A stretch of DNA of 32,000 nt from a virus. Positions 3,336-31,120 of this stretch are shown here, piece after piece. The notes beneath the pieces were generated by a model that worked only from the letters and a program-made list of their open reading frames with translations, was not told the DNA's origin and did no database searches. The position numbers and the translations under genes are program-made. The stretch covers positions 30,001 to 62,000 of the IMG/VR virus record IMGVR_UViG_3300045988_175865; one strand, given 5' to 3'. How positions within the stretch are numbered: position 1 is the first letter of the stretch; every line of letters begins with the position of its first letter.

Positions 3336-5876
3336 TTAGTTACAACGACTTCAGCCGCAGGACATACAGCTTACACATCCTGAAGTAGCAACCAATGGTT
3401 CCCCACATTCTGGACATACGTTTTTATTATCATGATTGGCATTTATTGAAGGTTTTGTATCTGGAACACTAATCTGCTCTTTTTGAGGAATTTTTACATT
3501 ATCTTTTATAGCTTCTGTAATTACTCTTGATATAATATCTGGGCATGACAAACCATCAATATTAATTTTTCTAGCCTTACATGTACTACAAGCAGGACAA
3601 TTAATTCCTCTTATCTGATCAATTATCTCATCGACTTTAACACCACTTCTAAGATTAAGAGAAATTAATCTTGTTACAGCATTCATGTTAGCTTGACAGA
3701 TACCACCTTTAGATGTATGTGTGAACACTTCTACAAGATTACCCTTATTATCCTTATTGCAAGTTATATATAATGTTCCACATGCACATTTTTTACAAAA
3801 AGTTGCACCATGTGTTGTACCAAGTGTTTTGCGTGAAACTGGTGCAATGGAATCAAATTTGAAAGATTGTTTTTCTTCTTCAACTTTAATAGATTCCCCC
3901 ATAATAGCTGGTCTACTATTTTCCCTAAATATCGTTAACCCTTTTAAACCAGCTTTCCATCCAGCTAAATATAATTTTTCTACATATTCTTGTGATGTAT
4001 CTTTCTTAAGATTAATTGTAGAACTTATTGCTGTATCAATATACTTTTGTAATGCTGCTTGAAGCTTTATACGATCATATGAATCAATATCATATGCTGT
4101 TACAAGAATATCATCATCTATAGAAGAATTAGGAACAGAATCAAGATATTCTTTTACAATTTTAGCATAAACATCATATACCTTTTCTTCTTTATTAAGA
4201 GATACTGTTTTTCTCTGAAATTTCTTCATAAACAGGGGTTCCAAACCGCCCGATACTCCAAGCATAGTTGAAATTGACCCAGTTGGTGCTATCGAAAGTA
4301 GTGAACAGTTTCTAAGACCAAATTTTTTCATTTTTTCAAGTTCATCGCTTGAAAAGGCTTCTTTCATTATACTAGATTCAAATACCTTGTCTGAATAGCC
4401 AGGAAATGTTCCAAGTTCTTTAGCAAGATCATATGAGGTAAATACAGAATTTCTGAAAATAAGTCTCATAATATTTTCTGCAAGTTTTATCGACTCTAGG
4501 CTTCCATATTTAATATTCAATTTTATAAACATATCATGAAGTCCCATAATTCCTATGCCAAGGTTTCGGTATTTAGCAATTTGTTCTTGTTGTTCCTTAA
4601 GAGGGTGGTTATGAAGATTTTCATCTATAATCCTATCCATTTCCCTAACAATAATCTTTATATCTGAAACTAGTTCAGAATAATTAACTGTTGCAAATTT
4701 TGTAAAAGGATCTTTTACATATTCAGATAGATTTATTGAGGATAAGTTACAGGACATATTTTTTGGCAAAGGTTGTTCCTATATATTACCTATTTAGCTT
4801 TTTATCTAGATATTCTGGAAGTTTCCTTCATACTCTTTATTGCCATTAGAGATACGTCTGTCAATTCAGACCAGTTTAGCATATATTTTCACTATAAAGT
4901 GTTGGGCACTCTTGGTGGAATTATATTTATTCATCCACTATGCGTTACAATGTTTCATAGCCTATTCGTAATCTATGAAATTATCTCGGTATTATCATGC
5001 AATAATTTGTTTAGACTTCACCGATTTTACCCAATTTTTTACATGAGGCAAACAATACAACTAACTGATAACCAGCCATTTACTACCACATGGATTACTA
5101 GTATCTATTTGATACTCAGTAATATACTCCATCAAATTATAATTTCTGAATCTATTCATAAACATGACTCCAGGCTCTGCATGTTCATATGCATTTTTCA
5201 TCATAAGTTTATAAATTTCAATTGGAGTTATATCATAATCAGGATATCCCTTAAACTTAGATTTAATATGAAGGGTTATAACTTCTCCTGTCTCATAAAA
5301 CTTATCTACGGCATTCATAAAGTTATCATCAACTTCCACAGAAAGGTTTGCATTATTGATCTTTCCAAGATTGCTTTTAATAGTTATGAAATCTTTTATT
5401 TGTGGATGATCTGCTGAAAGAGACATCATTAATGCGCCTTTACGTGATCCACCCTGAGAAACAGAAGCAGTTACAGTATTAAATATCTCCATAAATGGAA
5501 CAATACCATCTGTTTCATATCCTGAAGAAAGTTTTGATCCTTTTGGACGAATATCAGATAAAGATAATCCTTGACCTCCCTGAGCTTTGAACGTTAATCC
5601 TATATTTTTTGCCGTTTGAAGAATATCATCAAGATTATCTGCAATTTTACCAGACGAGTAGCAATTTGAGTACGAAGCCTGTCTGTCTGTTTGTCTGTTT
5701 GATAGAGTTCTTCCTCCAAATAAGAACTTTTTAGCAACAATTAACTTTCTTAGTTCTTCATTTCCACCACTAACTCTATCAAACCACTCGTCTAAAGACT
5801 CATTATTATATCTATACTTTTTATTTCAAATATCAATTCCTAATTGATCATTATTAAGCCATTCTTCAACAGTCAT
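3336..5876 (-). CDS. nrdJ: class II (adenosylcobalamin-type) ribonucleotide reductase, split by a group I intron (exon 1 5085..5876, exon 2 3336..4778)
   Basis: N-terminus MTVEEWLNNDQLGIDIW(TGA 5826-5828)NKKYRY. Other motifs: QGGQGLSLSDIRPKGS and SQGGSRKGALM. Joining the exons restores the catalytic motif TSNPCG|EQPLPKNMSCNLSSINL. Cys-rich tail CPECG...SGCVSCMSCGW(TGA 3351-3353)SRCN, then TAA at 3336. Confidence 0.85.
4779..5084 (-). ncRNA. group I self-splicing intron (ORF-less) in nrdJ
   Basis: 306 nt separate NPCG from EQPL. The 5' exon ends in U (GGT|) and the last intron nt is G (4779). The segment has stops in the exon frame. It shares sequence blocks with the other introns: 4877-4892, 4938-4949, 4984-5000. 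Confidence 0.75.
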
Positions 5877-5899
5877 ATATTATATACTTAATTAATAAT

Positions 5900-6451
5900 T
5901 TATTCAAACTCTCTATTTTTTCTTTTACTTATTCTCACATCTGCTTCATCTACTCCAAACACAATATACTGACCTAATTGAGTTCGTACTGAAGGAGTAT
6001 ATTCCATCTCAAAATCAATATCACTAGAATAGTACACTGTTTTCCCATATATATTCTCTTGACACTTCTTTATTAGTTCTTTTGATAACTCTATTGCTTC
6101 TGTTTTATTACTAGCAGTTCCTAAGAGTTGATTATCTTTTTGAGTTCGAATTTCTATAACCCGCTTAAGTTTACAACGACCTTTTCTACGGACACTGTTA
6201 ATTTTAAAAGGATTTTTTCTAGTATCTTCAACTCCAGAAGTAACGGTAATAATTATACCTGCTCCTTTAAAATCAAACATACCCTTTTCCTCTAAAAAAT
6301 CTGCGGCGTATATATTTAAGTCTTTCGTAAGTATAGGAGAGCCTGCTTTCTTCCAATTTTTTGTAGCATCTTGTACTACGGTAATACCTGCTTGAAAAGC
6401 TATAAGTTTTGCCTCCTCTAAGGAGTGAGCTTGAATTTCTATCTTCTGCAT
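5900..6451 (-). CDS. hypothetical protein
   Basis: Track ORF 5900..6472. The ATG at 6451-6449 (MQKIEIQ...) lies 1 nt after the upstream gene's TAG, so it is the preferred start. Stop TAA. No motif recognised. Confidence 0.5.
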   Translation of the reverse strand: MQKIEIQAHSLEEAKLIAFQAGITVVQDATKNWKKAGSPILTKDLNIYAADFLEEKGMFDFKGAGIIITVTSGVEDTRKNPFKINSVRRKGRCKLKRVIEIRTQKDNQLLGTASNKTEAIELSKELIKKCQENIYGKTVYYSSDIDFEMEYTPSVRTQLGQYIVFGVDEADVRISKRKNREFE

Positions 6452-6452
6452 A

Positions 6453-7493
6453 CTAAACAAATATAATATCATCGGAATAATAATTCATCTCACAATATGC
6501 AACCATCTTAAGAAGTTTACAAAATTCTTTACGCCCTTGTTCTAGTACCTCCTTGTTAATTGGGTATACTCCAACACTATTAGTAGATGTAGTTTCAACA
6601 ACAATAACATTACATTTTACAGTTCATTCTTCTGAATTGTATCCATACTTTTTTTCACAATATCTAAGTAGAACTCAAATATAATATGCGAATTGTCTTG
6701 AATAAGAAAATATTTCAAATGATCCACCAGGTTCCATAAATTGATATAATAAATGACCTGTTGTTTTTAAATCATTTAAGGTGATAATTTTATTTTCAAG
6801 ATCAATTGTTCAATTATCAGCTTTCATTTTAAGCTTAAGAGTATGTTGATTACCATTATAAGATGCGTTTATATCAATAAAGAATGCTTCCTCATTATAT
6901 GTTTCAATAGCATCTCCAAAGATATCAGTAGGATATAATAGATTATTTACTTGTCTATTAGAATTAAGATTATTAATACACTTTTCTACTGTATCTCGAT
7001 CCTTAGATGATAGAATAATAGTATTATTATCTGTTATAAGTTTAAGATTATAGTAATATCTAAACCCATCTTTAATAATACTTTTTATTCTAGAAGGGGT
7101 TAAGCTTAATTCATAATAATGTATCTTTCCACAAGCTTCTACTATGGCACTATATATAGGTAGATTCTTTTTTCGTAGCTTAAATATTTCATCAATTACC
7201 AGTCCTAACTTAGCTGAGGGTTTACCTATGTCTGGGCCTAAAGTAAAGACATCTTTCTGGAGTAGTAGTTCATGGATTGCACTGCCAATACTTAATGATA
7301 TTGTGGTTTCTCCAGTAAATCCTTCTTTATATTTGCTTGGAGACCCATTTTGATTAGGATTAATCAACTTTAAACGAGAATTTGATATATAGTTGGTATA
7401 TTTACTTGAAAAATATTCCTCATCAGACATTTTCTCACGACGGACACTTTCTAAATTAGGAGATAGTTTTATATCATTTAAATTAACTGTCAT
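6453..7493 (-). CDS. PD-(D/E)xK exonuclease (Cas4/RecB-like phage recombination nuclease)
   Basis: Track ORF 6810..7493 continues in frame through TGA at 6810, 6675 and 6624 to TAG at 6453. The extension carries ITLNDLKTTG (D-x-K core) and SRQFAYYIW, as expected for this fold. Confidence 0.6.
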
Positions 7494-7582
7494 AATGTTT
7501 TATAAAGTGGTACTTATTATTAGAAATACCCATAAGAACTTTGTTAGCTTCTTCTACTTTATATTGTGAAACTAAATTATAT

Positions 7583-7828
7583 TTAACTTTCAAGTTTCCT
7601 TTTTGGTCTATCATCTTCTATCTTTGTATCTCCTGTTTTATTCATATTAACTAAAGCAGTTAAAAATAGCTCGCATAGTCTCGCAGAAAGACCTAAATTT
7701 GCTTTTAAATCTGTGATTTTTGGTTCAAAGGAAGGTTTATAGTCCAAGTTTCCTTTATCGTCTAGACTAAAATCTAGAACGATTTTCTGTCCTGTGCTGT
7801 GAATAAATTCTACTTTACAAGTTTCCAT
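7583..7828 (-). CDS. hypothetical protein
   Basis: 81-aa ORF, stop TAA. Its start overlaps the end of the upstream gene. Confidence 0.45.
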   Translation of the reverse strand: METCKVEFIHSTGQKIVLDFSLDDKGNLDYKPSFEPKITDLKANLGLSARLCELFLTALVNMNKTGDTKIEDDRPKRKLES

Positions 7829-8234
7829 ATTTCTTAATTAATTCATAAAAAAAATCTTTCGGTATCATAACCACTTCTCCAACTGACCTAAATGTAGACT
7901 CTGTTGGTTTAATTTTTTTTCAAAAGATAACAAATGGTTTATCTTTAAAAGGACATGAGTTTAAAATTCCAAAATAATCTGGAGTATTAATAGTTGCTTT
8001 TAACTGAGGATTAAAAAATAGTTTATTTTCAACATCAACTAAATCAACCTTTCTATCATCCATACTTTTACTTTCTGATCTAGAGGTAACAACACCTGTA
8101 AAACCAAGGTCTCGTAACTCTTTTGCTATCTGTACCTCATAAGCATTTCCTCTAGCTCTATTCCTCTTTAAATTTCTTGATTTCTTCTCTTTCCCCCTCT
8201 GATTTTCCTTTAATATATTCTTTTGCGCTTTCAA
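7815..8234 (-). CDS. resolvase-like PD-(D/E)xK nuclease (Hjc-like pattern)
   Basis: Basic N-terminus, then GNAYEVQIAKELRDLGF...DDRKVDLVD...NPQLK, an E...D...(D/E)xK layout. Continues through TGA 7920-7922 to TAA at 7815. Confidence 0.5.
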
Positions 8235-9195
8235 TTAGACTAACAGTTTTATCATGTTTATATTTGGCATAAAAGTCAGATATATCTTTAGCTTTATATT
8301 CTCAAGGTATTCATATTGGAATAACTTCAGGGAATTTCTTTTTAATAGATATCATTGCTCTCAATCCTGGACGATCATTATCATATAATAAGATTATATG
8401 TTTAAATCTTTCTTTAAGACGATGATATTGAGCCTCAGATAAGAAACAATTTTCTGATATTGGGGCTATTGCGGGAATTCCTAAATTATACAATGTCATT
8501 ACATCTTTTAATGACTTAGTAACAACAAGATATTCTCCCATTTTTGGTAACATGTGAGATCCTTGTAGTCTTAGTGATTTTCAATTAGATATAAATTTAT
8601 ATTTTCTATTATTAGGGAAATAAATCCGTCAACGTTCAATATCTTCTCTTATACCTCCATAATATCCAAATACTAATTGTTTATCTTTAAACAAATGAAA
8701 CAAATTATTATTAAGGAATACATTTTTACAAGAAAATACCTTGAACTTGTTTAGTGTTCGCAAATCAATACCAAACTTAGCCCATCAATCTAACTCATAT
8801 TGTTCGAAATCTTTTATTTCAACTTGAATAATAGCATCAGTAGTATCTTCAAGTTTTGTATTAGAATACTTAATCTCCTGCGGTATATTATTTTGTCTGG
8901 GAATTAAACCTATATCACTTGCAACTATGTTTAATGCCTTATAATACCCACAGCCATATTTATTCATAACCACATATACTCAATCTCCGCAATAATTACT
9001 TCCAAAGTCTTTTATAATAATCCTACCCATGCGATTTTTATAATATGCTACAGTAGGTTTTGAATCGTTTCTTACTTTAGACCTAAAAAGACCCTTTTTT
9101 ACAGGTTGCCCATAATAAGTATACATTAATGTTTCTTGAGAAACCTTAGATTCAATTAAATCTCTAGTTATAACAGCAGGAAACTTGTATTCCAT
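8158..9195 (-). CDS. DNA primase (TOPRIM domain)
   Basis: Track ORFs 8980..9195, 8785..8973 and 8311..8553 are all in one frame. They fuse through TGA at 8980, 8785, 8629, 8581, 8311 and 8302, ending at TAG 8158. TOPRIM signature EYLVVTKSLKDVMTLYNLGIPAIAP...ILLYDNDRPG. Confidence 0.7.
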
Positions 9196-9240
9196 ATCTT
9201 ACCTCTTTATACATAAGTTTACGATTATTTATAATATAAT

Positions 9241-9284
9241 GTACAAGCATACTTCTTTCAGTAACGAAGAAGATATGCTTGTAC
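9241..9284 (-). terminator. long hairpin between ssb and primase (possible intrinsic terminator or attenuator)
   Basis: gtacaagcatacttcttt / cagtaac / gaagaagatatgcttgtac forms an ~18-bp stem with one bulge. It is followed on the minus strand by an A/U-rich stretch. Confidence 0.45.
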
Positions 9285-9314
9285 ATGCGTCATATAACTA
9301 TAACTTATTTATTA

Positions 9315-9977
9315 TTAGAAAGGCAGATCACTGTCGTCATTGTTCATACTATCTTCTTGAGGAGAAAAGTCTTCACGCAGATCATCAAGTTCATTATTAC
9401 GTTGGCGCATATCAGTAGGCTTTGCATTTGCTGCACTGTCAATAGCTGTTTTTTCTTTTGCGGTTAATACAAGATCATGACCAATTATTTTTGTAGTCAT
9501 ATAAATTGCGTTATCCTTACTGAGACGTGCTACAAACCCAGGAAAACCTACAAAGTTCCCAGTAGTTGGCACAAGCTTAATTTGTGTCTGAGTTCCAACT
9601 TTCTTATCAAGATATTTCTTAAGAAGAGCAATGAAGGAGTCAAAATCTGGAGCAGCAAACTTATCTCCATCTGCTTCAATCTTATGTGCAAGTTCAGGAT
9701 CAAGAGCATCAATTACTTGCTTGATTTTACACATAAACTGCTCAGATTCAGATGGATTTGTACCATATTGACTTTGGGTTCTTTCTTCTGAGCGGGGTTC
9801 GAAAATTCGTTCATTGTGAATACCACTACCATCTACTGCCTCAAAACGAAGTTCAATTGCATTAAATCCATCCGCTTTATCAATTCCTTTAAAGATTACA
9901 TTGTGAATTCCAGCACGAAGGAAATTATTAGATACTACCTTAGCGTCCTTGACGCCACCCATATTAAACATACTCAT
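9315..9977 (-). CDS. ssb: single-stranded DNA-binding protein
   Basis: 220 aa ending in an acidic tail, DDSDLPF. This resembles the bacterial and phage SSB C-terminal DDDIPF-type tip. The gene sits within the replication module. Confidence 0.6.
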   Translation of the reverse strand: MSMFNMGGVKDAKVVSNNFLRAGIHNVIFKGIDKADGFNAIELRFEAVDGSGIHNERIFEPRSEERTQSQYGTNPSESEQFMCKIKQVIDALDPELAHKIEADGDKFAAPDFDSFIALLKKYLDKKVGTQTQIKLVPTTGNFVGFPGFVARLSKDNAIYMTTKIIGHDLVLTAKEKTAIDSAANAKPTDMRQRNNELDDLREDFSPQEDSMNNDDSDLPF

Positions 9978-9984
9978 ATTATTA

Positions 9985-10440
9985 TTAAATTAAAGTTAAT
10001 TCATTATTTTCAGTAATTAAACTAAGATCAGCGGGGATGAGGTCTGCCTCGTTAATTGGATCCATTCTAAACATCCCAGGTTTATACTCCTTAATTTTAA
10101 ACAACTGACCATATTTAGTTAAGATTGTTTTCTGTGTTCCCTTAAAAGACACAGTATTGTTCTTGCTTACTTTATTACCAGCATTTGGATCAGCAAAAGC
10201 TTCCGCTTTACCAATTACAGGAATTGTAATTTCATTATTTTTTTGAATATAATTCACAGCAATTCTATCTCCATATTTGACTGACATAAGTTCTATTGCT
10301 TTAGGGGAGATAATTAGTCTACTATCTTCAACTTCAACAACTGGTAAGTTTATGTTATCATACTTAGGAGGTACATCTACTACCTTAACGTTAGTAACAG
10401 CCCGTGATTCTATATCAAAATCAAAAGATATTTTTAACAT
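9985..10440 (-). CDS. hypothetical protein
   Basis: 151-aa ORF, stop TAA. No motif recognised. Confidence 0.5.
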   Translation of the reverse strand: MLKISFDFDIESRAVTNVKVVDVPPKYDNINLPVVEVEDSRLIISPKAIELMSVKYGDRIAVNYIQKNNEITIPVIGKAEAFADPNAGNKVSKNNTVSFKGTQKTILTKYGQLFKIKEYKPGMFRMDPINEADLIPADLSLITENNELTLI

Positions 10441-10447
10441 AAAATTT

Positions 10448-11188
10448 CTATTTTACAAGAGATGGGTAAATACGTTCCCAATGTGGTACAAATGTTCCAT
10501 CTTCTTTACGTTCAGCAATAATAATATCTTTACCAGCTAAATGTTTGCATCGAGACCCAGTTAAGATTTCACCATTGTTTCCAAAATTAACACATAAATT
10601 ACCATCTAGATCTCTATGACAGAACCCAATACCATCTGACTTAGCGGAAAGAATTCGTTTTGTTTTTCCAACAAGATCAAGATCTTTTACACTACCTTCA
10701 AGTCCCTCGTTCAATGATATATCTTTTACATGGCCACATAAGATGATATTTGGAGCACATTTTGATACCATATCAATAATCTTTTCTAAGGCTAAGCGCG
10801 TCCACATATATCCCTGACCAGAAGGGAGATGAGTTACATCCGTAACATCGGCGTATTTATCACTATACACAGGAGAAGCCTTATATAAATTCAAAGCTAG
10901 AGGTTTTACCATTTCCTCTAGAGCAGTAATAGTATCAATCGTTATGTACTTATAAGGCTTCCCTGCATCGATAATTGCTTTACAGACCTCTTTAATTTCT
11001 TTAACTGTATTTACTTTAATCTTAAGTGCATCGATGTAATCAGTTCCTGACTCACAATCGATAATTAGATTGTTATCAAGAGTTGAAAGAGTTGTAGTCT
11101 TCCCGCACTTTGGCAATCCATAGAGAATCAAGTACTTAGGGTCTTGTATAGATGCTGGAATTTTACTTTTTGGTAATTCAATAGCCAT
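10448..11188 (-). CDS. AAA_24 / Sak4-like RecA-fold ATPase
   Basis: Walker A LYGLPKCGKTT near the N-terminus. Size (~246 aa) and overall layout match phage AAA_24 nucleotide-binding proteins. Stop TAG. Confidence 0.7.
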   Translation of the reverse strand: MAIELPKSKIPASIQDPKYLILYGLPKCGKTTTLSTLDNNLIIDCESGTDYIDALKIKVNTVKEIKEVCKAIIDAGKPYKYITIDTITALEEMVKPLALNLYKASPVYSDKYADVTDVTHLPSGQGYMWTRLALEKIIDMVSKCAPNIILCGHVKDISLNEGLEGSVKDLDLVGKTKRILSAKSDGIGFCHRDLDGNLCVNFGNNGEILTGSRCKHLAGKDIIIAERKEDGTFVPHWERIYPSLVK

Positions 11189-11190
11189 AT

Positions 11191-13735
11191 TTAAAAACTA
11201 AATTTATTTTTATTTCTGATATCTTTTACTTCTGTATCTTTTACAGTTGCATCTTTTATTTCTTTTTCTCTTCATGAAAGATAATCTTCATAATTTATTT
11301 CATCAGATTTAGGTAAAGGATAGAACATACCAATACTACCTTTGAAAGCAGACATGATAATTCTATTAGAAATACCATATCTATTTTTAAGAATAATAAT
11401 AGATCTACAAATATCTTGTAAACCATATCCTTCGTTATCATCCATTATTTTATATCCTCTATAACTTTTTAGTTGGGTTTTAAATGGACTAAATAATGCA
11501 ATACAAATATCAGCAGCTTGTAATGGTTCACCTGACTGTTGAATTTCATCCGCAGTAGGCTCTTCCATACCAGCTTTTCTCCTATCCATAGTTGTACTAT
11601 TTCTATTTTCTTGCATTATAATATCAAAACTAGTCTGACATAGTTCTCTAAATCTGACACAATAAGTTGATATAAGATCCATTTCTTCTTTTTTAGTTCT
11701 CCCTTTTTGAGGATTTACTAAAAGTAAATGATCAATAACAACATTAACTATTTGATTAGGATTATTTGGGGTATATATAGTTCTTTTTCCATCAGGACTT
11801 TTTTGAAAGGTTCCTAAACTTTTGTGGAGTTCCATCATTTCTGCATAAAAAGAATCTGCAGAGAGCTGTTTATCATATATAATAAACTTATGACTTATAG
11901 ATTCTAATCACTCACGAGCTTCAATTACATACTTATGTATATCATCTGGTAACTTATTAGTAAATGACATTAATTGCATATATGTAACTTCAATACCATA
12001 AGTTTCATATAAATATAAGCTTAATAATTTCGCCAACAATGTATTAGCACTTAGTTCAAGAGAAAAATAAACTATAATTATATCTTTATCTGGATAATCT
12101 TTTAAAATACGATATATATCTGTATATATAACAAAAGAGCTTTTCAATTTGTTATCTTACTTGCTTTTTATCAAGTAATTCTTATAGTTTCCTATAAGTT
12201 CAGCATATATTTTCATCTCTTTGAGATGTCGGATACTCTTGGGAAAATTATATTCTGTATAACAGGTTCATTTCCTATGCGTTACAATATAAAATAACTG
12301 TTAAATTACTTTATTATCTCGGGGTTAACATGCTTATATACAAAATTTGGATAATTATTCTGTACATATAGTTTAGCCTTCTCCGATATTACCCGATCAT
12401 TATCTCTAAAATCACTTTTAGAGACGGCAAAATTATGATTTTTAAAACACAAATATCTATAATATTTCCTATTTAAATAAATTGTAGAATTTTCATAAAT
12501 TCACTGTAAAAATTTAATACTATTATTTATATTACTTTTTATATCAAATATTAGATCACTTGTTTTATTTGCAACATATCATGTTCATGAAGTATTTGAA
12601 TATACTTCTATATTTTGTAAAATATTTTTAGTTCCAACAATACAACATCTTGGTTTAAAAATATTTTTACTACCTCCATAAGATAAACATCCATCACCAT
12701 CAAAATATCCTCTAATAAAATGTCTTATTAAATCTTTAGATTTAAAAATATTTTCATCAGGAAATTTTAAGACATAACTTTTATTTGGAACACATCCTTT
12801 TTCTATTAGAGCATCTTTAATATGTTTACAAGAAATAGCAAATCTACATCGTTGCAATTTATTATCAGTTCTTGGTAATCTGAAAATATTTAAGGCACTA
12901 TATAATTTTTCTAGATGTTCAATATCATCAATATGTAAATCACATGAGATATGGTAAGAATTTGTAGAAACATTACCATCAGCATATAAAAATCCCAATC
13001 AATATGCTTTTGTTTCTGTGTCTATTACATCAAAAAATGATTCATTTACTGTTTTACGATTTAGGTTGAAATTATGTTTTTTTAGAAACTTTGAAATAAC
13101 ACAACCTTGAGTATTATATAATTTACCTATTTCTTTCAGAGACATACCGTTATTAAAACAATCAATCATATTTTTTAAATCATTTAATTTAAACGTATAT
13201 GATATCCTATTACTTTTATGTGATAAATAAATTCCGCATCGTTTAAATAAATTACCTAATGCAGCAGATGTACAATTGCACAATTTAGAAACAGATTTAA
13301 GTGATATTTCAGGATTTTCATGAAATTTACATAAGGCTTCTTTAACTTTTACATCATTTACTTTATGTTTTCTAACATTCTTAAAATAAAAATCTAAAAG
13401 AATTAAATCTACAGCTTGTTTTGAAATATTTAATTTGTTGGATATTTCAAATGAATTTAAATTTTGTTTTCTTAGTTCTATTATTTTGTTTATCATAGTA
13501 AAAATTATTTTAATTTTTACTACAAAAATAACGCAATTTATTTATATTTACAAATATCTGCGTTGGAAATTATTAATGTTTTACCAACACTACTTTTGCT
13601 GAATATTAACTTATATACACCCTTTTTAAATCCTCCAGTATAAAAATCCAATTTTAAAAGTCCTGTTTTAAGACCTATATTTTTACCTTCTCGCCCGTCT
13701 TCTATTTTAGAATATAATTCACCTACCAAACTCAT
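11191..13735 (-). CDS. DnaB / T7 gp4-like replicative helicase, split by a group I intron (exon 1 13583..13735, exon 2 11191..12144)
   Basis: Exon 1 reads ...GLKTGLLKLDFYTGGFKKGVYKLIFSKSSVG. Joining to exon 2 completes the P-loop as SSVG|KSSFVIY. Exon 2 passes through TGA at 11908 and 11272 to TAA at 11191. Confidence 0.75.
12145..13582 (-). mobile_element. group I intron with LAGLIDADG homing-endonuclease ORF, inserted in the helicase P-loop codons
   Basis: The 5' exon ends GGT| and the intron ends ...GATAACAAATTG| (G at 12145). Core blocks at 12201-12216, 12275-12286 and 12317-12333 are shared with the nrdJ and ferritin introns. The ORF is in a different frame from both exons. Confidence 0.7.
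12306..13496 (-). CDS. LAGLIDADG homing endonuclease with N-terminal HTH repeats (intron-encoded)
   Basis: Track ORFs 12999..13496 and 12585..12998 are in one frame. Motif 1 is KAYW(TGA 12999)LGFLYADGNV and motif 2 is IRGYFDGDGCL. The frame continues through TGA at 12585, 12579 and 12501 to TAA at 12306. Confidence 0.8.
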
Positions 13736-14340
13736 TAAGCAGTTGTATAAACATCATAAGTACTGGTCTTACCTTGTATTCCCTTTATTTTCATTTCTTC
13801 AAATTCGTTTCACTTACAAGAAGCAACAAATTCAATAATAGGAATATGAATAAGATCGTTCATCTTAGCTCATTCTAATATTTCTAATACTTCTCGATGT
13901 TTACTTATACTATGTCCAATAGTTGATGCGTATCAAAAATAAAATTCTTGTAGGTCTCTAAATTTCTTAGAAATATTCTTTAAACTTACAATCTTACCAT
14001 TTAGATACAACGTTGTTGGATATGCATCCATTAACTCTTGTCCTAGTTCTCCAGTTAATTTGAAATACTGTTTAATAAAGTTTTGATTAAACTCTATTTC
14101 ATCAGGATCATAACAATTAGGATTATAATTTTTCTTAATAATACCTTTATCTTTGAGAGAATTAAATAAACTTTTTAATCGTTTATTACCACCGCCGTCA
14201 TATCATTTTTTGAAATAAATACGATGCTCTTCGGGATTTCCATTCTCCGTTTGTGCAATAAAAGTTAAATATATTAACAAAACTTCATCAGCTGTTAACT
14301 GATATTTAGTCATAATATTTAAAATCGTATCTAACTTCAT
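13735..14340 (-). CDS. hypothetical protein (position suggests a helicase-associated or loader role, unproven)
   Basis: ATG 14340-14338 to TAA 13737-13735, 201 codons, with four in-frame TGAs (for example 14203-14205). Invisible in the standard-code ORF track. The stop overlaps the helicase ATG (TAATG). Confidence 0.55.
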
Positions 14341-14388
14341 ATAATACGATTAAAAGTAAACATAACGTATTACGTTAGATCTTTTAAA

Positions 14389-15612
14389 TTAAAATCTATG
14401 CTCTATATCTATTATGCCTTTTTTGGGTCTAGTAGAAATTTCACCACCTTTTAATATAACATCTAACTGATCCTCAGTAATAGTTATATAAGATTGATTT
14501 TTATTAGCATTATTATACCAAGTTTCTTCTATAGAACCTGCAATCACTAATGTAAAAAACTCTGCAACTTTATTTTCTTCAGCTCTGATCACACGGCCAA
14601 TACGTTGTAAATCAGTCACTTGAGAAGAATTACAAGTTAAAGCTATACCTACAGATAATCCTCTAACATCGACACCAGCATCTAAAGCTTTAGGAGAAAC
14701 AATATTAGCAATATCTAATTGATTAAATGTTTCAAGAATTATCCTATTCTCCTTTTTCTTTTTCTGACTATGCAATACTAAAGCTCTGGATTTAAATAGC
14801 TCTGCATCTTTTACAGTAGCAGTAAACAATATACATTTCTTGTCTCGTCTAAAGTCTAGAATTTTATTTGCAACTTCAAACTTTTTAGGATGAGTCATGA
14901 CAAAAGTTTTTCTTAGCTTTAAGTATTTCATAAACTGAGCTAAGTAACCTCTTGTAGCATTATCACTTTTCCCATATTTTTGGGCCCAAATTTTCACTTT
15001 TTTGGGTGATTTGACTAGCTCCATCACCAGTTTAAAATCGTGATTAAAATAAGCAAATAATTGTTGGAATTTAGCATTATACTCTCAATATTTCTCCATA
15101 TCAACATGTAGAAGAACTTTATATTTTCTGTATGAAGATACTCAGTTATTTTCTAATGCTTCTTGTAATGTAATTGTATCACAAACGGACATAAACTGTT
15201 CAAGATATTTTTCACTTCCGTCTAGACGAGTTCAGGTTGCAGTTAATCCTAAAAGATATTTATATTCTACACAGTTATAGATATTGATAAACGTTGGACT
15301 TGCAGATAAATGACATTCATCTACTACTAATAGGTCAACTTGATATTGCTGTTTAATGATAGTATTAAATATTTCTACTTTACAGATAGAAAAGAGTTGG
15401 TTTTTAGCCAACTCTCTATTTCACTGTTCTTTCAAAACATCTGTTGGAACAGCAACTAATACTACGATGTTAGGATTATGCTTATATAACGATTTAATAA
15501 CCATTATACTACCATTTGTTTTACCTGTGCCAGTAGCCCATTCAAGTACACCTCTACCACCACTATCAATTCAGCGTCTTATACCTAATTTCTGACGTTC
15601 ATCTCGGTTCAT
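14389..15612 (-). CDS. SF2 (DEAD/DEAH, ResIII-type) DNA helicase
   Basis: The N-terminal half is recovered with five in-frame TGAs (the first at 15571-15573). Motif I is ATGTGKT, motif II is VVDECH and motif III is GLTATW. Motif VI QRIGRVIR is in the track ORF 14389..15027. Stop TAA. Confidence 0.8.
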
Positions 15613-15648
15613 TAAAGATACAAAAAATTGATTAGATATAAAAATAAG

Positions 15649-16494
15649 CTACTCTTTACTTGTCTTTTCGAATATTGGTAATGAAATATTTCTTGCTTCA
15701 GCCACTCGTTGAATATTAGACATTAAAGTATTCCACTTATTTATATGATAATTTAAATCATTATCTAGTAATAATAATATTTTATCTCTTAATGTCTTTA
15801 GTGCTATAGTTGACAATGATGTTATCTTAGGTAAAGAGGTAAGCTGAACTAATGAACGAAATTCAGAAAAAGATAATCCTGTTGGACTAACTCGAAGTTT
15901 AATATCAGGATTCAAACATAATCTTTCCTTAATTACTTCCATTCTGTTACGTACTCTACCATTACTATCGACTTCAGTTAACTCAACTTTTTCATTATCC
16001 GTTAACCAGATTCCCTGTGCTAAAATAAACTTATCAGTAATCATTTTCTTATTTAAAATATCAAGTTTATCAAAACAAGCATCCATGAGACGACTAACAG
16101 TTACCTTTTCAAAAATAGGCTCAAGTCCGTTAAATAGAACTGAAATAGATTCATTAAGTATATCCTCTTCATGGGAGGATCTTTGACTATTTATATAGTC
16201 AAGAATATCTTTCTTTGTTTTTATATCAGTGTCGCAGTCATGTAAAAGATATCTTACAAATAACTCTGTATTACAAGCATCCCATGTTTTATGAATATTT
16301 TCTCGAACGACATATTTGCCAGGGGACCATGGATATGCATTGTATAACATCTCATAACAGTGCTTATATCATTTCCTAATATCCTCTTCAGGAGCTGTCA
16401 TAAGTTTTACATCGTTACCACTTTTATCTTTCCACGTTAATGATTCAATAGAATCCATTGCATTTTGCAATTTTTCACCAAATTCTGTACACAT
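15649..16494 (-). CDS. hypothetical protein
   Basis: Track ORF 15649..16350 extends upstream through TGA 16369-16371 to ATG 16494-16492. Stop TAG. Confidence 0.55.
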
Positions 16495-16495
16495 A

Positions 16496-16846
16496 CTATT
16501 CAAAATCAAATTTGTCTTGTTTACATATATCTTTTTGTTTAAAGAAATTTATAAAATAATTATTACTATAATTATAAACTTCAAAATCTTTTAAATTTTT
16601 GTTAAACCATTGAGTAATACCACCTTCTACATATTGAAATTGTAAATAACCAATATCACCAACTTCAAATGTGTCAGCAGTATCCCAGTTTGGAAGTCTA
16701 ACTATTGTAACATATTTTAAATCGTCTGTTATATTACGATTTAGGTCTTCAACAACTATTTCAGTATATTGTCCTTCTTGAATAACTAAGACTTTACAAT
16801 ATATTGTTACTGCTTGAGGGGTCATAATATCTACAGGTTTCTCCAA
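16496..16846 (-). CDS. hypothetical protein
   Basis: 116-aa ORF. It overlaps the 3' end of the phosphoesterase gene by 53 nt, or 32 nt if it starts at the second Met. Stop TAG. Confidence 0.4.
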   Translation of the reverse strand: MEKPVDIMTPQAVTIYCKVLVIQEGQYTEIVVEDLNRNITDDLKYVTIVRLPNWDTADTFEVGDIGYLQFQYVEGGITQWFNKNLKDFEVYNYSNNYFINFFKQKDICKQDKFDFE

Positions 16847-17600
16847 TGTTAAGTAATCGAAAACAGATATTATCTACAATTTGAGTATTGCTTTGATGGA
16901 AATGTCCGTAATACCAATTAGTAATATCATCTTTATAATCATTATAGACCATATCCATAACAGCTCTCTCCTCTTCTATATCCTTTAATAATTCATTATC
17001 GTATTGAGAGTATTCTTGTACAATACTCCCCTTATCTGTTGGAAAACAGAATGAAGGAGCTGTATGAGAACAGATAATATCTATTTTCGCGTCAACTTTA
17101 GGTCGATATTGAACAATCTCATCTTCCCAATACGTCTTAGGAGCATTTAGTTCTGCTGTTTTATAGTCACAATTGTGGTATTTCATATATCTAACTATAT
17201 TAATAGAATCATTTTGCTTCCTAATAATTCTATCTACAGATGTAGCTCCTCCAATACAAAGAATATTAAGATTACAAGTATTTATTATAGTATAGTCAGG
17301 AACACACTTAACATAATTAGTATTAATAAGTTGATTATTGTAATACTTTGGGTTACTGTGATTTCCTCTAATCCAAATAAATATATCATTAAACTTTTTT
17401 AATACTTTATGTAATTCAGGAATTACATGATCTGTATAATGTTTCAACCGCTCAAATCCTATTCCCACATCTCCGCAGAAAATAAATACTGAATTTTTTA
17501 TTTTATATTGTCGAATGTTATGTATAACTGAATTCCATTCTCCATGTACATCTCCAACTATGTAGAGGTCTTTAATTGTATCAGGAAGATTAATTGTCAT
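16794..17600 (-). CDS. calcineurin-like metallophosphoesterase
   Basis: Motifs GDVHGEW, CGDVGIG, RGNHSNP and YGHFH occur in the canonical order. Confidence 0.8.
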   Translation of the reverse strand: MTINLPDTIKDLYIVGDVHGEWNSVIHNIRQYKIKNSVFIFCGDVGIGFERLKHYTDHVIPELHKVLKKFNDIFIWIRGNHSNPKYYNNQLINTNYVKCVPDYTIINTCNLNILCIGGATSVDRIIRKQNDSINIVRYMKYHNCDYKTAELNAPKTYWEDEIVQYRPKVDAKIDIICSHTAPSFCFPTDKGSIVQEYSQYDNELLKDIEEERAVMDMVYNDYKDDITNWYYGHFHQSNTQIVDNICFRLLNIGETCRYYDPSSSNNIL

Positions 17601-17606
17601 AACTTT

Positions 17607-17975
17607 TTATATTTTAAACCCTCCGATTGGAAGGGAATAAATATTATATATTTTGTTGTTAATCTCTATATAATATCTATAAGAGTTAAAGATATTAATA
17701 CAATAAAAGAAATCATTCTTATACTTAATATCACTAAGATAAAAACCTGATTCCTCAGGATTACTAAGGAGGTTTATATCAAATTTTAGAAGATATGGTG
17801 GCAAGATATTCACATTACTAACTCTAAAGACTATTTTTAGTCCAAAACTAGAGTTGAATTTAGTTTTTGGTACATATGCTAAAACCCCCATTCCAATATT
17901 TAAACAGGCTTTAATATAATTAGGATCGTTTCTGTAGACAATTATGTTATGCTGTTCGAGCTCCAGTATAGACAT
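17607..17975 (-). CDS. hypothetical protein
   Basis: 122-aa ORF, stop TAA. Its ATG lies 1 nt downstream of the ferritin TAA (TAATATG). Confidence 0.45.
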   Translation of the reverse strand: MSILELEQHNIIVYRNDPNYIKACLNIGMGVLAYVPKTKFNSSFGLKIVFRVSNVNILPPYLLKFDINLLSNPEESGFYLSDIKYKNDFFYCINIFNSYRYYIEINNKIYNIYSLPIGGFKI

Positions 17976-17976
17976 A

Positions 17977-19628
17977 TTAGTCTATGTCCCCCTTATAGGC
18001 ATTCATAATAGATTTTTCCTTTCTAAGCCAAGAGCCCTCAGTTTCTGCTATATCTAGAACAGTACGGCTAATAGATTCTTCTTCTCAATTTTGTTATCGT
18101 ATAGCTTTTTATCTATACTTCTTATACTTCATTTTGTATAAGCTCAGCATATATTTTCACCTTCAGCATTATCTGTTAAGGGTAAATCACTCGTGGGTTT
18201 ATTTTATTCTAATCTGTTATTAATATTTTATAATTGTATATAGCGTTGTATACCTGTTTTGGAAGTATATTTTTATATTTGTTAGCATATTCCTTTAAAC
18301 AAGTTTCTTTCTCTTTCTTATATGCTCTAAATGCTTCTTCAATTGTAGAAAAAGTTCCTATATGTTTTTTCTTATTCATATAATTAATTTGAGCAATTAT
18401 TTTATTGTTTTTGATTCTGACTCCTATTGGAGTATTACCTCTACATTGAAATCTTCAAGTAATAGCAGTATTAATTTCCTTTGGGATAAAACAACAATAA
18501 TTTGGAGAATAAATTTTATTCCCCTTTACCAAGAAATCTTTATCTATAACAAATGATTCGTTATAACAATTATTATAATATCAATCCGCAAAATTCTGAA
18601 AATTTAATCATTCTTTACAAACAGTAACTCCATTTCCTCCATAGTTATTATATTCAGAAACTTTTGGACAATAACATCTTCCAATCATTTCTTTCCAAAT
18701 TTTATAACATCGAGTTTGTTTACCGTTTTTGTCCCTAGAACTATATTGACCTACTCCAAAATAACCTGTATTGTATACAGACGGATAATAAGGATCTTTA
18801 ACAGAGCCCTTTTTTAGATTACCTAGTTCAGCAGTAATAATAGTACCTGTTTGTAAAAATTTTATTATTACATTATATGAATCAATATATTCTAGAATGA
18901 TAAAATCTCCAGAACTATTTGAAGTCATAATTTTATTTTCATAAATTTGTTTGTTATTTGTCATATATCATAATATTTTAATTAAACATAGTACAAATAT
19001 ACAAATTCTTTTTCAGACTCACAAACAAATTAGGTTCAAAACCTATGCGTTACACTGACTTAATATATTACTATTAAGTTTAGCACGGTATTAGCATCTC
19101 AGCCTTCACCGTTTTTGATTTATTCTATTCTACTTATTTCTAAGCAGACAGGCAGAATTCTACCTGCTCGTTCACTAACATTCCTGTCTCTTTATTATGC
19201 CCGTTCAACCAGTTGAAAGTAGCCCAATCACCCTCATTAGCTGCCTGATCAACAATTTCATTAATCATTTGAGTAGTTTCAATTTCAAGATCTACGGTAA
19301 TCTTAAAAGGATCTACCATATCTTCTACTTTCTTATCAAACTGCTCAATAGTAGGATAAATATACTCTGCATCGTTTTCATTTAAATATTTACGAATCCA
19401 GGAATGATGTAAGTATTCTTCATCTGCTCTTTGTTTGTAATACTCTTCAAGAATAACAAATCCTCTAACACCAAAGTAATTTGCAAAATTCATATACGCA
19501 TTATGATTTTGCAATTCATGCTTAAGCTGACGAAGAAGTAGTTTTTGAATTTCAGCACTTAAAGTGCATTCACGCCTACTAACATCCTTTTTTTCTACAG
19601 GATCATTTGCCTCATTTTTAATTATCAT
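17977..19628 (-). CDS. ferritin-like di-iron protein, split by a group I intron (exon 1 19162..19628, exon 2 17977..18085)
   Basis: Ferroxidase-type residues appear in ELQNHNAYMNFANYF...ADEEYLHH...EIETTQMINEI. Joining the exons gives ...MLVNEQV|EEESISRTVLDIAE..., matching the bacterial ferritin segment VSEQHEEEKLF. Stop TAA at 17977. Confidence 0.7.
18086..19161 (-). mobile_element. group I intron with HNH/AP2-like homing-endonuclease ORF, inserted in the ferritin gene
   Basis: The 5' exon ends ...CAGGT| and the intron ends ...GATAACAAAATTG| (G at 18086). That 3' end is nearly identical to the helicase intron's. Shared core blocks are at 19083-19098, 19043-19054 and 18145-18160, with the ORF inserted between the last two. 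Confidence 0.7.
18209..18964 (-). CDS. intron-encoded homing endonuclease-like protein (degenerate HNH plus AP2-type DNA-binding domain)
   Basis: Track ORF 18608..18964 continues through TGA at 18608, 18581 and 18455 to TAG at 18209. Sequence: YKIWKEMIGRCY...VCKEW-LNFQNFADW-...IDKDFLVKGNKIYSPNYCCFIPKEIN...GVRIKNNKIIAQINYMNKKKHIGTFSTIEEAFRAY. The last stretch is an AP2-like pattern. Confidence 0.65.
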
Positions 19629-23079: not shown

Positions 23080-23649
23080 TTATTGTTTATTAACAGTGTA
23101 TCCATGATGTTCTAAAACTAGTTTACATAAGTTTAAGTACTCTTCTACAGTTAAATCACTTTTAGAATAATTAGCTGCAGGAGTTGTAATACCTAAATTT
23201 GATAAATCATTCGACCCGCCTTTAGAAACTGGTATTATATGATCAAAACAATAATCATCTTTTTCTAAATCAATAGGAGTGCCTGTTAAATAGCACTTTG
23301 TTTTTGTGCCAAATTTATTAATAATATCTAAAGTCTTAATTTTATTTAAACTCTTCATTCCTCTATTTTGAAAATGTTCAATATATCTCCTTAAACGTTT
23401 ACGTCATGTTCTATTAGAGATTCTTCTACATCCATGAGAGATTCTAGCACAAAAAGTACATAGTCTAGATTTAATTCTCCCCTTAAGTGTATTACGTCAT
23501 AATGAAGTAGATTTTCGTTGTTTACTATTAGTTATATCATTACAATAATATCCAACAATACTTTTGCTACATCCAAGTATCTTAGCAATTTCATTATAAC
23601 TTTTATTATCACTTCTTAAAATAAGAATTTGTTCCTTTAACTTACTCAT
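23080..23649 (-). CDS. free-standing HNH endonuclease with N-terminal HTH
   Basis: ATG 23649-23647 lies 14 nt after the tRNA 3' end. HTH is SYNEIAKILGCSKSIVGYY. Two in-frame TGAs at 23497-23499 and 23404-23406. HNH core is CFDHIIPVSKGGSNDLSNLGITTPAANYSK. Stop TAA. Confidence 0.75.
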
Positions 23650-23663
23650 AATCAACTTATTAG

Positions 23664-24101
23664 CACGAGCTCTCCGATTCGAACAGAGACCGTAGGGTTT
23701 GGAGCCCTACAATACGGTTTTGCTTACCACTATAGTTTTCACTACCAGTTTTACTGTTTGTAGTCTGGACTATATCAGCTTGATATACAAGTGTGGCATT
23801 TAGTCTCTACACATTTATAGAGTAAAGTAGGATACATAGAGAAGTGTACGGCTTTAATTTTCGACCTACTAAGCACTCCGCCTATTTTACACGGCATAAA
23901 CAGCCTATGTTCTCTACTGTATTTTACTCTAATTTAGCTCGGTATTATCAGCTATCCATATTTCAGGACCTTAGACTTTCTTAGAAAGCTGATTCGCATG
24001 ATTTTTATCATCTTATTTCGCTTTTACCGAATTTGCCACAATTTTCACGCCAAGCGTGCTCCAATTCGAAGACCGCTGTGCTACCATTACACTAAGCTCG
24101 C
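23664..24101 (-). tRNA. intron-containing suppressor tRNA, anticodon UCA after splicing (tRNA-Trp-like, G73), with a 25-nt extra arm bearing a CUCCAAA loop
   Basis: Exon 1 (24101..24069): GCGAGCU UA GUGU AAUGGUA GCAC A GCGGU CUU. Exon 2 (23722..23664): CAAA ACCGU AUUGUAGGG CUCCAAA CCCUACGGU CUCUG UUCGAAU CGGAG AGCUCGU G. The acceptor stem is 7 bp (G1-U72 wobble). The T-loop is UUCGAAU. U8, A14, GG and A21 are present. No CCA is encoded. Confidence 0.75.
23723..24068 (-). ncRNA. group I self-splicing intron in the tRNA anticodon loop (after U34)
   Basis: P1 is CUU|CG / UGGAG, with a U-G pair at the splice site. P2 is CACGC-UUG-GCGUG. P3 is UGUGGCA (24040-24034) / UGCCACA (23798-23792). P4 is UCGGUA (24030-24025) / UACCGA (23944-23939). 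P7 is GACUA / UAGUC, inside the consensus strings AGAGACUAAAUG and GAUAUAGUCC. P8 is CUUG-UAUAU-CAAG. The terminal G is at 23723. The ligated CUU+CAA pairs continuously with the guide sequence UUGGAG. Confidence 0.75.
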
Positions 24102-24124
24102 ATTTATTATCTTTAGTTATACAG

Positions 24125-24155
24125 CAAAGATAACAAAAATCTGTGAACAATCAAA
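24125..24155 (-). promoter_or_regulatory. candidate Bacteroidota-type promoter (TTTG-N19-TAnnTTTG) upstream of the tRNA
   Basis: The minus strand reads TTTG (24155-24152), 19 nt, then TATCTTTG (24132-24125). The tRNA 5' end is 23 nt further downstream. Confidence 0.35.
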
Positions 24156-26685: not shown

Positions 26686-27464
26686 ATTCCATAAAGTTTA
26701 ATTAGATGTTCTGCCAGTACTTTATTAGATGTATTAATACACTTTTGAACTAAATCTCCTTCTGGCAAAGGAAATCCTTCATTAAACATATCTACAGCTA
26801 ACATAGTTTGTTTATAAATCATTGGAAGGTATTTGTCATTAAGCATAAAGCTACTTAGACATCTTGCTTCTACTCCCCACTCAGGACAACGGAAACTTCC
26901 TGCTTGACCATATAGAGTTCTTCTAAAAGTATCTCTATCATATAATACAGAAGGAACTCCACAGCATAGATCAAAGAACTTAATAAGCTTAACAGATGTA
27001 TCAAAATTAGGGTTATCATATCCTATGTGAATGTGTGAACCTGCCACTCTTCTATTATCAGGATAACCTTGTGGCTTATCGTTTTCACACTCTGTATAAG
27101 CATCATAATCACTAGAACATCCAATTTCATTTGCTTTAGGATCAAGTAATTGATCTTCAGGCACGGGCATAGATGCACTACAACAAATATCAAGATTGTT
27201 ATCGAATTGTTTAACCCAATTACGAATCCAATCTTTCATATATTTAATAGAATCTACAAATTCATTACTAGAAGTACAAGGTGGGATATTAAATTCTCCT
27301 AAAATACAGTCAATCTCCACACCAAATCCTTTTGGCATGCCTTTAGTATATGGTTTACCTTTTTCTCCTGGAATTATTCCAATTGCAGATACTACTTGGT
27401 TTGTTTTTGTATTAAAAATAAATAACTCGGGGTCTGCTCCAACTGTAATATTTTTAATTTTCAT
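26673..27464 (-). CDS. COOH-NH2 ligase, phage phiEco32-like type 2
   Basis: N-terminal VGADPELFIF, later RRVAGSHIHIGYDNPN. The family assignment is from motif memory. Confidence 0.55.
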   Translation of the reverse strand: MKIKNITVGADPELFIFNTKTNQVVSAIGIIPGEKGKPYTKGMPKGFGVEIDCILGEFNIPPCTSSNEFVDSIKYMKDWIRNWVKQFDNNLDICCSASMPVPEDQLLDPKANEIGCSSDYDAYTECENDKPQGYPDNRRVAGSHIHIGYDNPNFDTSVKLIKFFDLCCGVPSVLYDRDTFRRTLYGQAGSFRCPEWGVEARCLSSFMLNDKYLPMIYKQTMLAVDMFNEGFPLPEGDLVQKCINTSNKVLAEHLIKLYGICAD

Positions 27465-29483: not shown

Positions 29484-29484
29484 A

Positions 29485-30027: not shown

Positions 30028-30041
30028 AACTATTTTTATTT

Positions 30042-31118: not shown

Positions 31119-31120
31119 TT

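Follow-up and report, generated by a model that had tools for sequence, protein, structure and literature searches.

The 32,000 nucleotides (nt) of viral DNA analyzed here, positions 30,001 to 62,000 of IMG/VR record IMGVR_UViG_3300045988_175865, very probably contain three genes that are each split by a member of one widespread family of phage group I introns, Twort-like and of the IA type, together with a fourth intron of a different type in a gene for tRNA(UCA). We refer to this whole stretch as the window and count all coordinates from its first letter. The three protein genes encode a ribonucleotide reductase (RNR), a DnaB-like helicase and a ferritin-like protein; we call their introns I1, I2 and I3, and the intron in the tRNA gene I4. 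I1, I2 and I3 appear to be old lineages that are each specific to their site. For this reading we relied on the sequences themselves, a covarying fold, homology to the introns of phage Twort, the exon junctions, and the presence or absence of each intron among relatives, all of which we observed directly. An original prediction, made from the letters of the window, had pointed to blocks of sequence shared between these introns. That pattern is real but ordinary, and I1–I3 add to an already known kind of intron. Its count of four group I introns in 32 kilobases (kb), a high density, is correct.

I1 is 306 nt long, has no open reading frame (ORF) and runs from 4779 to 5084 on the minus strand, as do all of the introns, exons and intron ORFs described below. 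It interrupts the RNR gene between NPCG and EQPL, where exon 1 (5085–5876) ends in ...TSNPCG (TGT GGT) and exon 2 (3336–4778), which carries the C-terminal TSCPD domain, starts with EQPLPKN.... When the two exons are joined, they give a single continuous match to Pfam Ribonuc_red_lgC (residues 79–548, E = 4e-99). I2 (1438 nt, 12145–13582) lies within the Walker A motif of the helicase, at SKSSVG|KSSF. The 51 residues of exon 1 (13583–13735) end in ...FSKSSVG (GTT GGT), the first half of the motif, and exon 2 (11191–12144) starts with KSSFVIYTD... and contains the DnaB_C domain. I3 (1076 nt, 18086–19161) splits the ferritin-like gene at NEQV|EEES, between an exon 1 (19162–19628; Pfam Ferritin, E = 4e-14) that ends in ...LVNEQV (CAG GT) and an exon 2 (17977–18085) that encodes EEESISRTVLDIAETEGSWLRKEKSIMNAYKGDID followed by a stop, in agreement with the intron-less alleles. 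As had been predicted, each site lies within a motif of the host gene that is catalytic or highly conserved, and all three protein-gene insertions follow GGT (TGTGGT|, GTTGGT| and CAGGT|). All four introns have a U before them and a terminal G (omega G).

The relatives of the window in IMG/VR are 75–96% identical to it, on contigs of 95–178 kb. We number the loci of the intron family L001–L114, and L115–L177 are relatives. Taking out the introns leaves intact genes, with junctions equal to the intron-less alleles of L147, L121, L137 and L134. The intron-less helicase gene of L147 reads ...GSAKSSYVIYTDLYRILKDYP, which matches the predicted I2 junction exactly, and the ferritin-like genes of L121 and L137, where I3 is absent, read EEQ(V/R)EEESISRT, again exactly the predicted junction. 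L026, a 94% identical relative, does not have I1 and reads SNPCGEQPLP once its own, different intron is removed. There is a 99% identical copy of I2 in L026 and another copy in L087, and I3 is present in L119, L124 and L132. Each of the four introns is therefore polymorphic for presence and absence at a fixed site (I1 with L026, I2 with L147, I3 with L121 and L137, and I4 with L134 and others), so that both kinds of allele whose survey the original prediction had suggested, with and without the intron, occur for all of them. We rejected L148 (residues 1–63 matched) as an intron-less helicase allele; this was a tblastn read-through into the intron.

Every string quoted in the original prediction is found on the plus strand where it had been placed. 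In the window, CTATGCGTTACA occurs three times against 0.01 expected from dinucleotide-preserving shuffles, and AGCATATATTTTCA three times against 0.00 expected. For the third block the claim stood in part. The 13-mer CTCGGTATTATCA is exact at 4985 in I1 and at 23938 in the tRNA intron, and the supposed variants in I2 and I3 are inexact, with three mismatches at 12318 and two at 19084. Allowing as many mismatches, we count 14 matches in the window where 10.4 are expected. Since these variants are not above chance as strings, homology of this element in I2 and I3 rests on structural alignment. Because the genes and RNAs are on the minus strand, the plus-strand blocks are reverse complements of RNA elements. 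In I1, which has a branched P9 region, 4984–4997 is the 3' strand of P5 plus P4' (the Q element), 4938–4949 is J6/7 plus the 5' strand of P7 (the R element), and 4877–4891 is J8/7 plus the 3' strand of P7 (the S element). Two introns were said to share a 3' end, and they do: I2 ends in GATAACAAATTG and I3 in GATAACAAAATTG. The 3' end of I1 is GGTAATATATAG.

To collect the family we searched IMG/VR for the combination of R and S elements, TGTAACGCATAG-N40-70-GAAAATATATGC, and found this core in at least 114 loci on viral contigs. An alignment of 44 non-redundant compact members, I1 and I2 included, contains the P3/P7 pseudoknot topology and the P4–P6 domain, with helices P3, P4, P5, P6, P6a, P7 (the pseudoknot), P7.1, P7.2, P8, P9 and a terminal hairpin with a GAUAAAAAGC loop. 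The original prediction had allowed for blocks that were AT-rich coincidences with no conserved structure and had proposed a structural alignment; this one supports covariation strongly. In it, 95.2% of the cells are paired, compared with 33–44% when the 3' partners are slid by 1–3 columns, and 41 of the 54 pairs have changes on both sides, values that 0 of 500 shuffles reached. Double changes are spread over the helices (P3 6/6, P4–P5 5/8, P6–P6a 8/8, P7.1 4/5 and P8 3/4). P7.1 is 98.6% paired, and P7.2 is optional, occurring in about half of the members with 76% pairing. The modeled architecture is that of a group I intron of the IA type, with P7.1/P7.2 between P7 and P3'.

A covariance model built from this alignment, R1, matches I1 from end to end with 159.3 bits (E = 3e-45), I2 with 174.6 bits (E = 1e-49), and I3 in two halves of 61.7 and 69.0 bits. 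As the original prediction had it, I1–I3 are group I introns of one structural family, with a covarying fold that one covariance model describes. Profile and covariance-model scans found no further copies of the family in the window. R1 also matches, over its full length each time, the three introns of phage Twort orf142 with 57.8, 39.6 and 15.1 bits (E = 1e-16, 2e-11 and 3e-4); the record, AF132670, was found with a Twort query (98.6% match) and is annotated as "contains group 1 introns". By these scores the I1–I3 family is homologous to the orf142 introns.

The cargo differs between the three introns, as had been predicted: there is none in I1, a LAGLIDADG-type ORF in I2 and an HNH ORF in I3. 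The ORF of I2 (12306–13496, 396 residues, four in-frame TGA) encodes a putative homing endonuclease that matches Pfam LAGLIDADG_3 (E = 1.3e-5) and the endonuclease family phrog_4645 (E = 2.6e-53). It sits between the 5' splice site and the guide, i.e. in the P1 loop, and its 3' end overlaps P3–P5–P4'. The ribozyme core of I2 is at approximately 12403–12145, with a P2 of 10 base pairs (bp) and a GUGA loop directly upstream of P3. The ORF of I3 (18209–18964, 251 residues, three in-frame TGA) lies in the P7.1/P7.2 loop and encodes a putative homing endonuclease of the HNH family, with matches to phrog_953 (E = 3.8e-57) and phrog_374 (E = 1e-52) and no match in Pfam. The P2 of I3 has a GAAA loop.

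Group I introns generally have a U at position -1, and in this family the GG before it is there because a GCC guide is conserved. Immediately 5' of P2, 57 of 77 members have 5'-GCC-3', versus 18 of 77 when shuffled. The observation that the introns always follow G-U is thus not peculiar to the window; it comes from the general rule for U at -1 and from a guide that is conserved across the family. By inspection, the bases 5' of GCC complement the 3' exon (P10) in each of I1–I3. The guide segment of I1 (5042–5055) forms P10 from UUGUUU with the 3' exon start GAACAA, and P1 from GCCUCAUG with the exon end CAUGUGGU. In I2 the guide is UUUU-GCCG (P1 GCCG/UGGU, P10 UUUU/AAAA), and in I3 it is UUCU-GCCUG (P1 GCCUG/CAGGU, P10 UUCU/AGAA). 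We rejected another candidate guide for I2, CCAAC close to the 5' splice site, because it would place U.U at the splice site and UUUU-GCCG beside P2 fits the layout of the family.

We infer catalysis, homing and endonuclease activity of these introns and their ORFs from structure and homology. The GCC guide would pair with the exon end GGU, with a G.U at the splice site (P1), and the bases just 5' of GCC would form P10 with the first bases of the 3' exon. An exogenous G would attack the 5' splice site, and the terminal G of the intron would then occupy the G site in P7 for exon ligation. Splicing would restore NPCGEQPL in RNR, the G-K-S of Walker A in the helicase, and the EQVEEE motif in the ferritin-like protein. 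When phages co-infect a cell, the endonucleases of I2 and I3 presumably carry each intron into alleles of its site that are empty; without an ORF of its own, I1 would need recombination or a trans-acting endonuclease to move.

Several points weigh against this reading. In I1, P1 contains an internal U.U mismatch and closes a loop of 35 nt, and P2 is missing. P7 is 5 bp long, opens with G-C and reads GCAUA/UAUGC, not GACUA/UAGUC; the textbook G-site helix has other base pairs at the second and third positions. P7 is also invariant because the search pattern fixed it, so it has no support from covariation, and more generally the family sample consists of exact matches to the R and S sequences and is biased to such members. 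Rfam 15 reported no group I intron in the window, either at the gathering score or at E<=10. However, with the same settings Rfam missed the I2 homolog and three introns with canonical cores in L026, so its silence on the window is weak evidence. The subgroup label IA2 follows the Twort and T4 introns and does not come from a curated classifier, and the catalysis of I1–I3 is predicted from structure and homology. Apart from its variant P7 and the fact that Rfam does not see it, nothing about this RNA family is unusual.

There are two other ways to read the shared blocks themselves. They could be AT-rich coincidences or intergenic regulatory repeats, with the flanking ORFs being separate genes. 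The window has a G+C content of 29%, and both Rfam and ARAGORN with default settings are silent on it. However, the chance expectation is 0.00–0.01 for blocks that we see three times, the covariation is strong, uninterrupted homologous genes equal the predicted spliced products, and there is homology to introns of Twort that are proven. This explanation is already refuted and we give it practically no weight. The other reading, proposed in the original prediction, is that one scaffold has recently copied itself into three genes of the genome, through ectopic homing or reverse splicing, with its different cargos gained afterwards. In its favor, I1–I3 are one family, with identical core blocks of 12–15 nt that all come after GGT, and I1 and I2 are closer than average (70% identical, ranks 7 and 12 of 81) and share both the CUAAAC...GCAUG form of P5 and CCAAGAG instead of CCACGAG. 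The same blocks are, however, invariant across the family in more than 100 unrelated contigs, and every variable stem (P3, P5, P6a, P7.1, P8, P9 and P9.2) differs among I1, I2 and I3. Over the 225 columns of the model the identities are 70% for I1–I2, 61% for I1–I3 and 65% for I2–I3, against a background median of 65% for pairs from different contigs; over the 150 variable columns they are 55%, 39% and 46%, against 48%. As a neighbor, I3 ranks only 70th of 81 for I1 and 63rd of 81 for I2, and the nearest neighbors are in other contigs. Extra copies in close relatives are equally divergent. Recent spread is largely refuted by these comparisons, and we consider it very unlikely. By sequence, I1–I3 are instead old, separate, site-specific lineages and not recent copies of each other, and shared core blocks among the group I introns of one genome should be taken as family conservation and not as a sign of recent copying.

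A further question is how the family reached its many sites. We counted at least 80 different 3' exons, including those of RNR, NrdD, RecA, PolA and AAA_24/P-loop ATPases, with terminase added as a host gene by GenBank annotation. Among the 89 distinct 3' exons of L001–L114, 13 start with AAA, versus a background of 4.2%, and 8 more start with AAG. This suggests that GGU|AAA, which encodes the Gly-Lys of Walker A motifs, is modestly preferred, and many guide segments of the family are U-rich followed by GCC. It is conceivable that new genes are colonized over the long term by GCC-guided reverse splicing (often with UUUU-GCC) and that the endonucleases only maintain lineages once established. 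Such guides match GGU|AAA(A), which is how Walker A loops encode Gly-Lys in AT-rich genomes; the GCC guide persists across these exon contexts while the endonuclease cargo varies or is absent; and the empty helicase allele reads GCA|AAA, without GGU. On the other hand, GGT is the preferred Gly codon in AT-rich genomes, conserved motifs containing Gly are also favored targets of endonucleases, the enrichment is modest, and no intermediate is known. In the empty ferritin alleles the site reads AGT| and CGT|, and this could be a cause or a consequence of insertion. We judge colonization by reverse splicing to be unlikely, though well ahead of recent spread. The conserved guide and the modest preference for GGU|AAA amount to a testable insertion rule for the family.

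Intron content turns over quickly in these phages, with many old, site-specific lineages exchanged between related phages. The L124 copies described next are only 55–65% identical to I1–I3. Relatives L117, L124 and L125 (92–95% identical to the window) have insertions at approximately 27038 and 27835, in a COOH-NH2 ligase-like gene (26673–27464) and in the neighboring ORF (27454–28101), and both sites are empty in the window. The L124 copies at both sites are members of the family (104–114 bits with R1), and L125 has the copy at 27038. In L026, the RNR gene carries three other group I introns (7586–8431, 8939–10163 and 10511–11675 of that locus) at sites equivalent to 5090, 4277/4276 and 3930–3881 of the window. 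Each of the three has a canonical GACUA/UAGUC P7 and an endonuclease ORF, and one lies 5 nt upstream of the I1 site. Two different introns compete for the same NPCGE codon cluster of RNR.

We consider the split tRNA(UCA) gene to be a more unusual item than the introns I1–I3. I4 is 346 nt long (23723–24068), has no ORF and lies in the anticodon loop between U34 and C35. The 5' exon (24069–24101) holds the acceptor strand, the D arm, the 5' strand of the anticodon stem and CUU. The 3' exon (23664–23722) holds CAAA, the 3' strand of the anticodon stem, an extra arm GUAGGG-CUCCAAA-CCCUAC, the T arm, the acceptor strand and G73. The junction, CTT|CAAA, is confirmed by the intron-less allele of L134. 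The core of I4 has P3 GUGGC/GCCAC, P4 UCGGU/ACCGA and P7 GACUA/UAGUC, with large P5 and P6 extensions and without P7.1/7.2, and P3 covaries among variants (GUGGC/GCCAC, AUGGC/GCCAU and AUAGC/GCUAU). The original prediction took the P4 block that I4 shares with the protein-gene introns as a sign of common family. This part does not hold. I4 has no nhmmer match to the I1–I3 family at E<=10 and scores only 5.6 bits with R1 (E = 2.5), compared with 159–175 bits for I1 and I2. All that I4 and I1 share is the 13-mer of the P5'/P4' Q element; the R and S elements differ, and a more divergent Q element, AAUCCUGAGCUAA, is found in Twort. Judged on its sequence, I4 is a genuine group I intron, but its structural type is not that of I1–I3.

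With default settings ARAGORN found no tRNA in the window, and after removal of the intron it reports a 93-nt tRNA(tca). We rejected two other candidates. A tRNA-Ala(cgc) with a 344-nt intron, from the intron option of ARAGORN, is ill-fitting, and the intron-less L134 reads CTTCAAA, which gives UCA. The second was a tRNA-Trp(CCA) in which extra sequence separates the D arm from the anticodon arm; no U|...G| splice pair would yield this product, and the intron-less relatives keep both arms.

The 7-nt loop of the extra arm in the spliced tRNA(UCA), CUCCAAA, is the anticodon loop of tRNA-Trp(CCA). We found this two-arm design in 51 viral contigs with 27 distinct 3' exons, and the loop was not imposed by our first tRNA scan, which used the 5' half only. 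In an alignment of 18 sequences 95.5% of cells are paired, G73 is present in all 18 and A1-U72 in 16 (the window has G1.U72). In the extra arm, the four core pairs hold in every sequence, and three of them show 6–9 double changes. A scan of 185,579 species genomes for the two-arm tRNA gave 11 matches, with 9 by chance in non-tRNA sequence, and a single convincing copy among cellular species, which is on a small contig and is probably phage DNA. Recognition of tRNA-Trp depends on G73 and an acceptor end of the A1-U72 type. We conclude from sequence comparison that the split gene is an opal suppressor-type tRNA(UCA) derived from tRNA-Trp and restricted to phages, for which charging with Trp is predicted. 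Our literature search turned up no suppressor tRNA that is split by an intron or has two such arms.

The U34|C35 site holds at least five different introns (192–707 nt), or none, in L115–L177. L151 and L176 have identical tRNA exons, with and without a 606-nt intron. Where we examined the 3' ends of the tRNA introns, all of them finish in GUAGUGAAAACU(A/G)U(A/G)GU(A/G)GUAAG, and those of L151, L166 and L175 score 40–44 bits with the Twort-like model R1, unlike I4. A free-standing HNH endonuclease gene (23080–23649, minus strand; Pfam HNH_4; phrog_6050, E = 5e-21) starts 14 nt after the tRNA. The block that comprises the tRNA, intron and HNH gene (23087–24143) is about 96% identical in six loci (L118, L127 and L136–L139), the remainder of which is about 75% identical to the window or scarcely matches it. 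These sequence comparisons suggest that the tRNA-intron-HNH cassette may move horizontally as a unit, with the HNH enzyme possibly acting in trans. L122 (IMGVR_UViG_3300020048_000119) has, on the minus strand at offset 4398, an odd tRNA-like gene with the same 5' half of acceptor and D arm and a different, unusually long anticodon region (AATCAACCTCTGAGAGTATTGAT...).

TGA is read as tryptophan in this low-GC, gut-type phage. ORF coverage of the minus strand, which carries nearly all of the genes, rises from 24.0 to 30.1 kb once TGA is counted as sense. Between the window and its relatives we counted 19 in-frame positions with TGA<->TGG exchanges and at most 2 for any other codon pair; because this exchange dominates, TGA encodes Trp. 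The two sides of the tRNA gene are not alike in their use of TGA. The genes transcribed before tRNA(UCA) (24171–31396) have 22 TGG and no in-frame TGA in 2370 codons, versus 45 TGG and 43 TGA in 7169 codons for those transcribed after it (1–23649). Since the tRNA gene is exactly between the TGA-free block and the recoded genes and needs self-splicing, it could gate a code switch during infection. Going further, the fifth arm may be a decoy identity element through which the tryptophanyl-tRNA synthetase (TrpRS) of the host would charge a tRNA whose true anticodon reads UGA, or it may allow a second fold that reads UGG, with intron and tRNA together gating the switch. We offer this as a tentative idea that is somewhat doubtful. 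The two-arm tRNA offers a testable hypothesis on how the TrpRS of a standard-code host could charge an opal suppressor, and if true, split and oversized tRNAs would account for the many recoded phage genomes in which no suppressor tRNA is detected.

The recoded block is a replication and nucleotide-metabolism module with primase, RecE-like exonuclease, Dda-like and SF2 helicases, RNase H, a Sak4-like protein, RNR and the DnaB-like helicase; published models put recoding in late or lysis genes. A megablast search of GenBank phages with 16.7 kb of the window did not find a close relative. Within the primase gene, 73 nt (8844–8916) are 86–88% identical to Staphylococcus phages and a rodent-gut virus, well above the similarity of the remaining gene.

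Among known systems, the closest to I1–I3 are the introns of Twort, for which several related IA introns in one phage are classic; a crystal structure of one orf142 intron has been solved. Both families have the order P3-P4-P5-P6-P7-P7.1/7.2-P3'-P8-P7'-P9, a P9 hairpin capped by GAAA, a second 3' hairpin and a tail UAACAnAAUUG that ends in G, and in both there are several related introns in one phage. They differ in P7 (GCAUA/UAUGC in the I1–I3 family, GACUA/UAGUC in Twort), in P4 (CGGU/ACCG versus CAGG/CCUG) and in the loop of the last hairpin (GAUAAAAAGC versus GAGUAACGAA). The host genes and host phages are also unrelated, and Twort has three introns in one gene whereas the window has three introns in three genes. 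Phage group I introns are also found in td, nrdB and nrdD of T4 and in bnrdE and bnrdF of Bacillus phage SPbeta. By description, I1–I3 resemble these nucleotide-metabolism introns in their sites at catalytic motifs of RNR and related genes, in optional endonuclease ORFs in peripheral loops, and in sporadic presence among close relatives. Unlike in T4 and SPbeta, the RNR gene of the window's lineage carries different introns in different relatives.

Crass-like phages of the Delta and Zeta groups (Yutin et al. 2021, PMC7886860) and other recoded gut phages (Borges et al., 10.1101/2021.08.26.457843) have been described as dense in group I introns and inteins and as recoding TGA or TAG, and the second study also reports in-frame recoded stops in the endonuclease ORFs of introns. 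Both studies report that suppressor tRNAs are often undetectable in recoded genomes, and both identified introns through endonuclease domains and not through the ribozyme; neither describes the RNA family of I1–I3, its guide, or an intron in a suppressor tRNA. The window is like these phages in its low GC, in TGA as Trp, in having many group I introns in core genes, and in recoded stops within the intron endonuclease ORFs, a likeness that rests on shared features and not on assignment of the window to Crassvirales. Members of the I1–I3 family are present in the GenBank crAss-like phages cr131_1, cr7_1 and cr128_1. Surveys of phage metagenomes that are based on Rfam would miss this family, which is very common in phages and invisible to Rfam 15, but R1 could find its members, which would help to mend gene calls that are fragmented in recoded gut phages.

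For I4 the comparison is with bacterial tRNA introns, such as those of cyanobacterial tRNA-Leu(UAA) and Azoarcus tRNA-Ile. I4 shares with them the site in the anticodon loop, a short P1 (three exon pairs and one intron pair) and a canonical AGAGACUAAAUG...GAUAUAGUCC core without P7.1/7.2. It differs from them in its large P5 and P6 extensions and in its host, an opal suppressor-type tRNA of a phage, with at least five different introns, or none, occupying the same site in related phages.

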